Source: Patescibacteria group bacterium
GTDB lineage: Bacteria > Patescibacteriota > Minisyncoccia > UBA6257 > Colwellbacteraceae
NCBI GenBank assembly: GCA_023380475.1
Contig: JAMCRD010000006.1
Location: forward strand, 117,996-181,995
Direction: 5' to 3'
Length of the DNA: 64,000 bases
The stretch's first letter is position 1; each line of letters starts with the position of its first letter. This document shows positions 57,585-60,118 of this stretch, piece after piece. The notes under the pieces were generated by a model. That model searched no databases. It had not been told where the DNA came from and was given only the letters and a program-made list of their open reading frames with translations. Made by a program: the position numbers and the translations under genes.

Positions 57585-59928
57585 GAGGATTTGATCCTGG
57601 TCCAGGATGAACGCTGGCGGCGTGGATAAGGCATGCAAGTCGAGCGGGATTAAATGAAAGTAAGTTGCGAAGTTTGAGAAGTAGCAATACCGATCTTTCC
57701 GAGTGATTTACAATTGTTTAATTTAGCGGCAAACGAGCTAGTAACACCTTGGCAACCTACCCCCGAGATGAGCATAATTCCGCGAAAGCGGAACTAATAC
57801 TCAATGGTCCCCCAGAACGAAAGTTCTGTGGGTAAACCTGCAAAGGGCTCGGGGAGGGGCCTAGGTCCGATCAGCTAGTTGGTGAGGTAACGGCTCACCA
57901 AGGCGATGACCGGTAGGGGGCCTGAGAGGGTGTTCCCCAGCGACGACACTGAGAGACGGGTCGTACACCTACGGGTGGCAGCAGTCGAGAATATTCCACA
58001 ATGGGCGAAAGCCTGATGGAGCGACGCCGCGTGCAGGATGAAGGTTTTAGGATTGTAAACTGCTTTTCCATGGGAGGAAGGTCACTTCGGTGGCCAGACA
58101 GTACCGTGGGAATAAGGGGTTGCAAACTACGTGCCAGCAGCCGCGGTAATACGTAGACCCCAAGCGTTATCCGGATTTATTGGGCGTAAAGAGTGCGTAG
58201 GGGGCTTAGTGCGTCTTCTGTAAAATCTTGCAGCTCAACTGTGAGGCCGCAGGAGATACGGCTAGGCTGGAGAGTGCGATAGGTTAGCGGAACGAACGGT
58301 GTAGGGGTAAAATCCGTTGATATCGTTCGGAACACCAAAAGCGAAGGCAGCTAACTGGCGCATTTCTGACCCTGAGGCACGAAAGCGTGGGTAGAAAAAA
58401 GGATTAGATACCCTTGTATTCCACGCCCTAAACAATGTCTACTAGCTATTTCGAGTATCGACCCTCGGAGTGGCGCAGCCAACGCGTTAAGTAGACCGCC
58501 TGGGAAGTACGGCCGCAAGGCTGAAACTCAAAGGAATAGACGGAAACCCGCACAAGCGGAGGAACATGAGGTTTAATTCGACAACACACGAGGAACCTTA
58601 CCAGGGCTTGAAATACATGCAGCAAGCCGCCGGAAACGGTGGCCCTCCGCAAGGACTGCATGCACAGGTGCTGCATGGTTGCCGTCAGCTCGTGTCGTGA
58701 GATGTTCCCTTCAGTGGGGAAACGAGCGCAACCCCCGTTCTGCGTTGCAAGTATCGCAGAAGACTGCCGCGATTTCCGCGGAGGAAGGAGGGGATGACGT
58801 CAAATCCGCATGGCCCTTTGATGCCCTGGGCAACACTCATGTTACAATGGACGATACAGTGGGAAGCCAAACCGCAAGGTGGAGCCAATCCCTCAAAGTC
58901 GTCCCCAGTTCGGATTGCGGGCTGCAACTCGCCCGCATGAAGTTGGATTCGCTAGTAATCGTGGATCAGCTATGCCACGGTGAATACGTTCTCCGGTTTT
59001 GTACTCACAATAAAAGCGCGTAGCAGGTTATGCGACTAAGTCGTTAAAATCGACTCCTCCAGTTTCGTCACTGGAGCGTAGCTGAAAGATAGGCTTGATT
59101 CGCGAGAATTAAGCTGGAGGATCTGGAAGCAAATTATAGCCCCGACGATAAAAACGGCGATCGAGTCACGGAATGGGTGGTGAGCGTGACGAAGATCGGG
59201 ATAAGCCGTGTCGAGGATGTAAGGAATAGTTATATAACTGACCTATGGAGATCTGATATCGTCATTAAACAAGTGCGGTATCAGAAGTCAGCTGGAGCGT
59301 AGTAGTCTTGAAAAGATGAAGGTCTCCACTCAGTCGATAGAGACTGAGCTCGCCGTATACGGGAGATCCGTCCGTACGGTGGGAACATCAACTCCAAGTT
59401 TATGGAGGATAATCGCCCGTCACGCCAAGGGAGCCGGGAGTACCTAAAGCCGCGCACATAGGTGCAGAGCATAAGTTCGGCGCTTATGTGCGCGGTTAGG
59501 GTAAATTCGGTAACAAGGGCGAAGTCGTAGGTGCAAACTGCACTTGTTGCGACTACCAACGGTAACGTTGGGATAAAAATCTGGCTATATGCTGGAACGC
59601 CTGTGTATCCAGAGCTACTGATTACCTGATATAATTTAAGGTAATAAGTGACAAAGCTTCTGGTGCAGGAAATCAGCAGGCAACCCAATTTCGATGTGGA
59701 ATTGGAGAGTCCTCAGAGACTATACGCCAGACCCCTCTTACTTGATTGAAGGATCTTTGTCCCCGTTAAATGCCATCGTGCATTTGCGGAGGGCGTAGGT
59801 TCTTGGCATTCTGTTAAATCAAAGATTTTCAGCGAGAGGGTGAAGATATAGTCCATGCCCTATAGCGATATAGGGGTGATCATGAACAAGGCACGGGTAG
59901 CGGAAGCTGTTCGTGGAACACTTACATT
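57585..59928 (+). rRNA. rrs: 16S ribosomal RNA gene containing large insertions; 3' boundary uncertain
   Basis: 5' end GAGGAUUUGAUCCUGGUCCAGGAUGAACGCUGGCGGCGUG. Universal blocks are present (GUGCCAGCAGCCGCGGUAAUAC, GGAUUAGAUACCC, AAACUCAAAGGAAU, GCAUGGUUGCCGUCAGCUCGUG, CACGGUGAAUACGUUC). Canonical sequence breaks after GUACUCAC (59008) and resumes at CGCCCGUCACGCCAAGGGAG (59414). The candidate 3' terminus is a GGAA-tetraloop helix at ~59895-59915 followed by CACUUACAUUU. Confidence 0.8.
59009..59413 (+). other. ~405-nt insertion in the 16S rRNA gene at the E. coli ~1392 region (candidate ORF-less intron or expansion)
   Basis: Interrupts the universally conserved UUGUACACACCGCCCGUCA; no intact ORF with HEG motifs inside. 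Confidence 0.55.
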
Positions 59929-60118
59929 TAAAGAACGAATCTGACATTTGTCAGATAAGGTTTTGGTCGAGGAGCCATTCAAGTCTCGACTCCTTCCGAG
60001 TAATTCGGATTGTATGGCTTTGGGATAACTAAAAAGTTTTCTATTCTATGTTCTCAACCTGACTATCTAGCAGACAGGATTGAGTCTGATAAACATTTTG
60101 TGCTAGTATTGAAGTAAC

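Follow-up and report, generated by a model that had tools for sequence, protein, structure and literature searches.

How a ribosome could be made from a 16S rRNA gene that is broken twice within its functional core, and how that ribosome would start translation without the usual anti-Shine-Dalgarno (anti-SD) sequence, are the questions raised by a locus near the end of a 64,000-nucleotide (nt) stretch of contig JAMCRD010000006.1 (assembly GCA_023380475.1), referred to here as the window. The gene occupies positions 57579-59930 of the forward strand, as do all of the 16S features described below. It is a working-looking 16S rRNA gene of the Patescibacteria, or candidate phyla radiation (CPR), and it consists of three exons (57579-59008, 59414-59528, and 59885 to about 59930) separated by two introns. 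Taken together, the evidence leads us to read the locus, with a probability of roughly 0.88, as a functional and probably single-copy Parcubacteria-type 16S gene, unlinked from 23S, with two self-splicing introns that lack open reading frames (ORFs) and with a 3′ tail that never had CCUCC in this lineage.

The identity of the gene is the simplest part of the answer. An Rfam scan matched the bacterial small subunit (SSU) rRNA model RF00177 from position 57579 with 1313 bits (E = 0, cut-off 50), and all helices align to the model. The automatic placement closes the gene at 59060, short of its true 3′ end, because the first insertion interrupts the model and forces its 3′ part to stop. When the region from 58990 to 60120 was scanned permissively, helix 44 was recovered as a separate piece of RF00177 at 59416-59530 (model positions 1393-1491, 34.8 bits, E 3e-8). 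Exon 1 covers approximately E. coli positions 1-1399 and ends in ...UUGUACUCAC; exon 2 holds helix 44 (E. coli 1400-1498), opens with CGCCCGUCACGCC, and closes with AAGUCGU, the last base being t59528; and exon 3 carries AACAAGG, helix 45, and the tail GGAACACUUACAUUU at 59915-59929. Helix 45 is intact and reads CACGGGUAGC-GGAA-GCUGUUCGUG. Joined, the exons give 1430 + 115 + 46 = 1591 nt. We take the junctions to fall at C1399/C1400 and U1498/A1499 of the E. coli 16S sequence.

The exact boundaries come from close relatives without the insertions. A homologue of ribosomal protein L31 that is 88% identical to the one in the window led to four independent contigs (L242-L245) with a conserved gene order of PilB, pilin, response regulator, 16S, L31, RF1, ..., L25, and aldolase. 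Their 16S genes read straight through site 1 as ...GTACTCAC|CGCCCGTCA... (in the longer read ...TTGTACTCAC|CGCCCGTCACGCC...) and through site 2 as ...AAGTCGT|AACAAGG... (in the longer read ...AAGTCGT|AACAAGGCACGGGTAGCGGAAGCTGTTCGTGGAACACTTACATTTAAAGAACGAATCTGACA...). The 1591-nt joined product is 93.7% identical to the 16S of these relatives from end to end (positions 1-1591), and the genomic comparison leaves exactly two blocks unaligned, 59009-59413 and 59530-59884. Because the relatives carry natural intron-less alleles, both junctions are fixed, and the one-base ambiguity at site 2 is settled by the group I rules of a U before the intron and a G at its end. The same alleles rule out that either insertion is a retained expansion segment. 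The group II intron described below is exactly missing in L242-L245 and in a further relative, L255, and the group I intron is exactly missing in L242-L245. The polymorphism extends to more distant relatives: contigs L254 and L255 have identical L31 sequences, and yet L254 carries a group II intron of about 980 nt with a LAGLIDADG ORF where L255 has none. We read both introns as optional elements of the homing type whose endonuclease genes have been lost. Chance is ruled out by the coincidence of the gaps with the segments missing from the relatives, by the score of the second insertion against RF00028, and by the at least 100 homologues of the first insertion at the same site. In the region of helix 6 (about 57655-57715), the exon itself is about 60 nt longer than the Rfam consensus; L243-L245 have this expansion too, and L242 diverges there.

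These boundaries can be compared with those in an earlier note on this DNA, made from the sequence alone. Its insertion of about 405 nt at 59009-59413 is exact to the base, since the gene leaves the consensus after c59008 and resumes at c59414, and its suggestion of an ORF-less intron there is borne out by a group II intron recognized through Rfam hits, covariation, and domain 5. The note also saw a second disrupted segment of about 340 nt and considered a second intron between the AAGUCGUA and AACAAGG half-sites; the segment does begin after AAGUCGU, its length is 356 nt, and its score of 75.9 bits, above the cut-off of 50, identifies it as a group I intron. The helix 45-like element that the note began at 59873 starts at 59885. 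Its statement that all universal blocks of 16S are present fails for the block GYACACACCG, which is altered because E. coli position 1396 is U and not A. The alignments to RF00177 and to intron models that the note had recommended as a check place the SSU and group I models above their cut-offs and the group II models below theirs.

Insertion 1 (59009-59413, 405 nt) lies between C1399 and C1400 and is, judged by its sequence and predicted fold, an ORF-less IIC-type group II intron of the LAGLIDADG-associated family found at 16S position ~1400 in CPR bacteria. The assignment rests on three collinear hits below threshold, a covarying six-domain structure, and a canonical domain 5. The hits are RF02001 at 59096-59237 (24.6 bits), RF01998 at 59263-59324 (23 bits), and domains 5-6 of RF00029 at 59348-59403 (21.7 bits), and the fold of the insertion has a z-score of -4.2. 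A consensus structure built from 13 ORF-less copies holds 106 pairs, and compensatory changes are seen at 78 of these. In the covariation test, 103 pairs in 16 helices were kept, with 96% of cells paired (about 40% in slid controls) and double-sided changes at 79 of the 103 pairs (at most 38 in slid controls), and none of 500 shuffles matched the observed covariation values.

The intron opens with a 5′ linker, AAUAA, and a degenerate 5′ motif, AAGCG, at 59009-59018 in place of the canonical GUGYG; in homologues, a variable A-rich linker of 7-12 nt is followed by NNGCG, in which GCG is invariant, and by helix I(i). Domain 1 (59019-59247) contains helices 1-11 of the RNAalifold and covariation analysis. 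Domain 2 and the junction J2/3 (..AUCAGAAGUCAGC) span 59248-59289 (helices 12-13), and domain 3 (GUAGUA...GAAGG, 59294-59327) comprises helices 14-15, in which every pair covaries; both stretches are also supported by the RF01998 alignment. Domain 4 is reduced to a 20-nt, 7-bp hairpin (59329-59348) at the place where longer homologues carry an ORF of about 142 aa that matches LAGLIDADG_1, and the family's LAGLIDADG ORF is therefore absent from this copy. A hidden ORF was looked for in insertion 1 and not found, and the ORFs that overlap it have no Pfam match. Domain 5 (59349-59383; helix 16, nearly invariant) has a 10-bp lower helix, a CC bulge, a 4-bp upper helix, and a GAGAU loop, and it aligns base for base with the RF00029 consensus GAGCCGUAU...CGUACGGUUC, including the 2-nt bulge and a CGC triad at 59351-59353. 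A CGC triad in domain 5 is the signature of IIC introns. Domain 6 (59384-59413; AUC-AA-CUCCA/UGGAG-GAU) was delimited by folding 56 homologous segments, and the intron ends in ...AAU.

How such an intron would define its ends is suggested by a single loop. The terminal loop of domain 1, GGGUGGUGAG at 59175-59184, can form 10 bp with the ligated exons CUCAC|CGCCC: GUGAG (59180-59184) is the exon-binding site 1 (EBS1) that pairs with CUCAC at the end of exon 1 (59004-59008), which serves as the intron-binding site 1 (IBS1), and GGGUG pairs with CGCCC at the start of exon 2. Three homologues are inserted one base away, and their loops (GCGGUGAG in L137, CGGUGAGUA in L184, and GGCGGUGGG in L218) are still complementary to the unchanged ligated sequence. 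The conserved GCGCG at 59016 was considered as the true 5′ splice site and was rejected in view of the variable linker, the intron-less alleles that lack the linker, and the pairing of the guide with CUCAC. In the mechanism that we propose, pairing of this loop with both exon ends would set the splice sites at C1399/C1400, and the intron would be a miniaturized IIC-type ribozyme from a family whose domain 4 in other genomes encodes a homing endonuclease of the single-motif LAGLIDADG type. Because the linker replaces GUGYG and the bulged branch adenosine is missing, its first step would probably be hydrolytic and not lariat forming. A bolder version of this proposal is that intron 1 is a natural minimal group II ribozyme, protein-free and lariat-free, with its splice sites set solely by one continuous 10-nt loop paired across both exon ends, which may do the job of a group I internal guide despite the loss of G1U2 of GUGYG and of the branch adenosine. 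We offer this version tentatively and think it somewhat more likely to be wrong than right. If true, few self-sufficient group II ribozymes would be smaller than intron 1, and surveys based on RF00029 or restricted to LAGLIDADG homing endonucleases (LHEs) would overlook a large population in Patescibacteria, with at least 100 such introns in metagenomes.

The size of that population was gauged with a metagenome search for a pattern of domain 5 plus the 3′ exon, which matched at least 120 contigs. Among the matches listed, at least 107 contigs hold a 16S gene that is interrupted by a homologous insertion at the C1399/C1400 site, and these include 78 distinct homologues ranging from 405 nt to about 990 nt, of which the window copy is the shortest. 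Most of the homologues listed are 820-870 nt long and have the ~142-aa ORF in domain 4; homologue ORFs match LAGLIDADG_1 (PF00961) with E-values of 6e-17 and 7e-21. Three ORF-less copies of 480-503 nt keep, immediately 5′ of domain 5, the last LAGLIDADG codons (...AAACA..ATGCAT(A/T)A) and are intermediate stages of ORF decay toward the 405-nt form. A stricter pattern had no match in viral contigs, and a looser one (GTACGGN{20,50}CGCCCGTCAC) gave only chance matches in genome contigs, all irrelevant and from GC-rich genomes. An exact look-up of the response-regulator protein returned no match.

The base that fails in the universal block is tied to the same guide. The near-universal A1396 of 16S rRNA is U in this gene (t59005) and in all of the roughly 100 intron-bearing homologues listed. 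Co-conversion of U1396 together with the intron was ruled out, as intron-less relatives carry U1396 as well. EBS1 GUGAG matches U and not A, and by these comparisons U1396 is a trait of the host lineage to which the EBS1 of the intron is matched. In addition, three Harrisonbacteria-type relatives (L247-L249) read CACUGCCCG, with U at the universally conserved C1400.

Insertion 2 (59529-59884, 356 nt) lies between U1498 and A1499 and belongs, by its match to the Rfam model, to the group I introns. RF00028 aligns over its full length (model 1-253) at 59523-59875 with 75.9 bits. No ORF was found in the insertion with the ORF list or Pfam. An internal guide, CUUGUUGCGACU, was read from the sequence at 59543-59554 with 12 bp of complementarity to the exons: its GCGACU half forms P1 with AGUCGU of the 5′ exon, placing a U.G pair at the splice site, and its CUUGUU half forms P10 with AACAAG of the 3′ exon. 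The intron ends in the expected omega-G (g59884). Through P1 and P10 formed with AGUCGU|AACAAG, this ribozyme would remove itself, and the two splicing reactions would yield a 1591-nt 16S rRNA with its decoding center (including U1396) and helix 45 intact. The same bond is interrupted in 18 of 67 distinct related 16S 3′ regions by inserts that span 49-868 nt and mostly measure 670-870 nt, and the 16S insertions of a Wolfebacteria-type relative encode LAGLIDADG_2 and LAGLIDADG_3 ORFs. Similar LAGLIDADG_2/3-type ORFs have been described at the CPR site 16IS10 (Tsurumaki 2024, PMC11270868).

Several points weigh against a functional, spliced gene. That the insertions are removed and the exons ligated in the organism is something that we infer from sequence, and the end of the mature rRNA at about 59930 is likewise a predicted position. 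The group II matches fall under the Rfam gathering scores (RF00029 at 21.7 against 40, RF02001 at 24.6 against 32, and RF01998 at 23 against 35). Domain 6 has no bulged branch-point A on its 3′ strand and in the 56 folds shows an AA bulge on the 5′ strand instead; the 5′ end reads AAUAA-AAGCG in place of GUGYG; and the 3′ AY varies within the family, being AU in the window copy and UU or UC in many homologues. Such departures from canonical splice-site features would suit an insertion that is not spliced at all, and either retained in the rRNA or excised by an RNase III-type cleavage that leaves the rRNA in pieces. Fragmenting intervening sequences of this kind occur in bacterial 23S genes and have been suspected for some of the short CPR insertions (PMC11270868). 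Against this, both elements keep complete ribozyme cores, and both guides are complementary to the ligated exons, an arrangement that is sensible only for splicing. The decoding center and the helix 44/helix 45 junction are critical for ribosome function, and retention of 405 nt or a nick at these places would be poorly compatible with it. In the accounts that two later papers give of Brown 2015, CPR rRNA insertions were missing from transcripts (cited in PMC9297842 and PMC11270868). We consider the absence of splicing very unlikely.

The remaining doubt about function is that the view of the genome is limited to 64 kb, so that a second 16S copy could lie elsewhere. Extended, this doubt becomes the proposal that a decaying pseudogene, or a chimera of the assembly, has been taken for the real 16S gene, which would carry an anti-SD sequence and lie outside the window. 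The 16S genes of metagenome-assembled genomes are notoriously misassembled, and the Logan contig of the same organism, the sole match in the L31 look-up, breaks at the 16S gene. Against both readings stand the context of response regulator, 16S, and L31, which recurs in five or more independently assembled relatives, the exons, which are 93.7% identical over their full length to the intron-less genes of relatives, the helices, all of which align to RF00177, and the tail shared among relatives. The genes in the window also lack SD motifs, as would be expected of an organism without an anti-SD sequence, and a single rRNA copy is usual in CPR genomes (PMC9297842). A pseudogene or chimera is the least probable of the explanations weighed here, and the preferred interpretation continues to be a functional gene with two introns.

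This leaves the question of how translation would begin. The 3′ end of the 16S reads GGAACACUUACAUUUAAAG and contains no CCUCC, as the earlier note had also reported in describing a divergent tail; where GAUCACCUCCUUA would be typical, though not obligatory for SSU membership, the gene has GGAACACUUACAUUU. All four syntenic relatives have an identical tail, and CCUCC is missing from 65 of 67 related 16S 3′ ends (CCUCC is found in 2 and CUCC in 9), among which GGAUCACUACAUUU and GGAUCAAUUAAUU are common variants. Because the tails of the relatives are identical and 65 of the 67 related ends lack CCUCC, the missing anti-SD sequence reads as a trait of the lineage. The window genes give a concordant picture. 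Occurrences of AGGA, GGAG, or GAGG at positions -20 to -4 were counted for 56 genes, and no enrichment was found (7 of 56, or 12.5%, against 11.4% in a background of random 17-mers). The upstream regions are A-rich and G-poor, and in 15 of the 56 genes a TANWAT box ends 4-14 nt before the start codon. TATAAT-like boxes end 6-11 nt before the ATG of many genes that head operons, for example at 8779, 16244, 42723, 44109, 46067, 47852, and 49064, and the closeness of such boxes to the start codons suggests that leaderless transcripts are widespread. Translation would then start without SD pairing on mRNAs with A-rich, G-poor, or leaderless 5′ ends.

One could object that the tail, read as CACUUACAUUU, is itself an alternative anti-SD sequence that pairs with a leader motif such as UGUAAG or AAAUGUAAGUG. 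Its preservation among the relatives and the recurrence of CACUACAUUU variants in many related 16S genes are in keeping with such a role. The leaders of the window genes are not: each of the tail-complementary 5-mers ATGTA, TGTAA, GTAAG, TAAGT, and AAGTG is found upstream of 0-1 of 56 genes, and the frequency of any such 5-mer (21% against a background of 15%) owes its excess to words made of A and T only. In related lineages, moreover, the tails diverge freely. Alternative pairing of this kind seems to us extremely unlikely, and initiation without any such pairing is preferred. A loss of the anti-SD motif is described for about half of the Parcubacteria (Tsurumaki et al. 2022, PMC9297842). 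The present gene, with no CCUCCU at its 3′ end, no SD enrichment in the window, and relatives among the Paceibacterota, Harrisonbacteria, and Wolfebacteria, resembles these anti-SD-less members. The same paper associates anti-SD loss with loss of ribosomal protein uL1 (PMC9297842); no uL1-type Pfam match was present among the window genes scanned, a span of 64 kb that is too small to show absence from the genome. The window does contain an IF3 gene (8188-8640, reverse strand) that encodes 150 aa with both domains and is relevant to start-site selection without SD pairing.

The surroundings of the gene fit its lineage. It is flanked by L31 on the opposite strand and by a response-regulator gene, an arrangement common to the relatives. 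The 23S and 5S genes were not found anywhere in the 64-kb window by Rfam and tRNA scans, and neither was a tRNA-Ile/Ala linked to the 16S; the sole tRNA in the window is a tRNA-Leu located 25 kb away, and there is also a transfer-messenger RNA (tmRNA) gene. The view in the earlier note that the rRNA genes are unlinked here was right, and so was its placement of the organism in the CPR. The L31 protein is a 100% match to one named 'Patescibacteria group bacterium', followed by Paceibacterota, Harrisonbacteria, and Wolfebacteria, and the organism is accordingly named a Patescibacteria/Parcubacteria-type bacterium, an affiliation that draws on the source names of L31 homologues and not on a phylogeny. 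CPR genomes usually have a single rRNA copy (PMC9297842). A hairpin, UCUGAC-AUUU-GUCAGA, adjoins the 16S tail at 59940-59955 and has a counterpart at the equivalent place in the relatives; it is a possible processing or termination element.

Other genes in the window have features of their own. The release factor gene at 56322-57050 (reverse strand) encodes 242 aa and matches the PCRF profile at positions 100-194 of 194 only, so that the N-terminal domain 1 is missing; it retains the PKT (RF1-type) and GGQ motifs, and the proteins of the relatives are equally short at 240-252 aa. A free-standing ORF at 32634-33287 (reverse strand) encodes 217 aa that include a pair of LAGLIDADG-like motifs (LAGLIDADG_3 in Pfam, E 8e-6), and its 3′ end overlaps tRNA-Leu(CAG) at 32560-32643 (reverse strand) by 10 nt. 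An origin of this ORF within an intron or from a 16S intron was rejected, given that no Rfam intron lies nearby and that it is only 27% identical to the LAGLIDADG_3 protein encoded in a 16S intron of a relative. A class I aminoacyl-tRNA synthetase at 25511-29035 (forward strand), probably IleRS by its Pfam domains, has 1174 aa with a His_Phos_1 domain (residues 502-664) between the halves of its catalytic domain. The tmRNA gene (tag ANYKVAAPALALA; 22947-23287, reverse strand) lies directly downstream of smpB (23255-23725, reverse strand) with an overlap of about 30 nt.

The arrangement has practical consequences. The introns interrupt the sequences to which the 'universal' primers 1392R and 1492R anneal, and U1396 adds a mismatch; PCR surveys would therefore miss the organism or yield an amplicon with 761 nt of excess length. 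In automatic annotation the gene is cut short at the Rfam end of 59060. The locus is a compact, well-bounded example for the study of endonuclease-free IIC-type splicing with a noncanonical 5′ end, of translation start without an anti-SD sequence, and of intron gain and loss between near-identical genomes.

Among known ribozymes, intron 1 resembles the group IIC intron of Oceanobacillus iheyensis, crystallized as a ribozyme of about 400 nt, in its similar size and its CGC triad. The resemblance presumably extends to helix I(i) (CCCGGCA), to J2/3 and domain 3 (AGAAGUCAGC...CAUAGUA...GAAGG), and to domain 5 (CGCCGUAUAC...GUACGUACGGUGG). Unlike the window intron, the O. iheyensis intron starts with GUGUG, has a natural reverse transcriptase, and targets terminator hairpins. 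A closer parallel is the group IIC-LHE family 'rns-1396', which Salman and colleagues reportedly described in 2012 from giant sulfur bacteria. A 2026 survey characterizes 'rns-1396' as a bacterial IIC family, found only in Thiotrichaceae, with a '5′ terminal linker' and with a domain 4 that encodes a single-motif LAGLIDADG endonuclease, and ties such linkers to loss of the branch adenosine and possibly to hydrolytic splicing (PMC13190283). Intron 1 shares with this family the IIC backbone, the CGC triad in domain 5, a small domain 1, no visible EBS2, the 5′ terminal linker, an insertion point in the 1396-1400 stretch of 16S, and, in other members of its own family, the single-motif LAGLIDADG in domain 4. 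It differs in its host, a patescibacterium and not a member of the Thiotrichaceae, and in being ORF-less. The comparison was made by description, by which '1396' and C1399/C1400 may be the same phosphodiester and the RNAs may be directly homologous.

The nearest published relatives are the insertions at CPR site 16IS9. Among the CPR 16S genes studied by Tsurumaki et al., 'group II intron-like' insertions occurred at position 1400 only, with 53 cases of which 39 had LAGLIDADG ORFs, 14 were ORF-less, and none had a reverse transcriptase (Tsurumaki et al. 2024, PMC11270868). Intron 1 has the same host group, the same site (C1399|C1400), detection by group II Rfam models, and no reverse transcriptase. 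Most members carry a LAGLIDADG_1 ORF, whereas the window copy is ORF-less and 405 nt long, and its RF00029 score of 21.7 bits lies under the Rfam cut-off and the E-value thresholds of published surveys. In another 2026 paper, a search of 95 complete Patescibacteria genomes (RF00029, E<1e-4) yielded no group II intron; our own explanation for such misses is the low RF00029 score of these introns. Intron 2 is like the CPR group I introns at 16IS10, a site near the 3′ end of 16S, and like rRNA group I introns generally in its RF00028 core, P1 with U.G, omega-G, and P10, and it has no ORF; 16IS10 may be the same bond, U1498/A1499. All of the features of the locus have been published for Parcubacteria or CPR bacteria (Brown 2015; Tsurumaki 2022, 2024), and the locus is ordinary for its lineage, so that current understanding is illustrated and not changed. 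What it adds to these systems is the exact junctions given by natural intron-less alleles, a 10-nt guide that spans both exons, U1396 as a host-lineage trait matched by EBS1, and the size of an intron population that current screens can miss.

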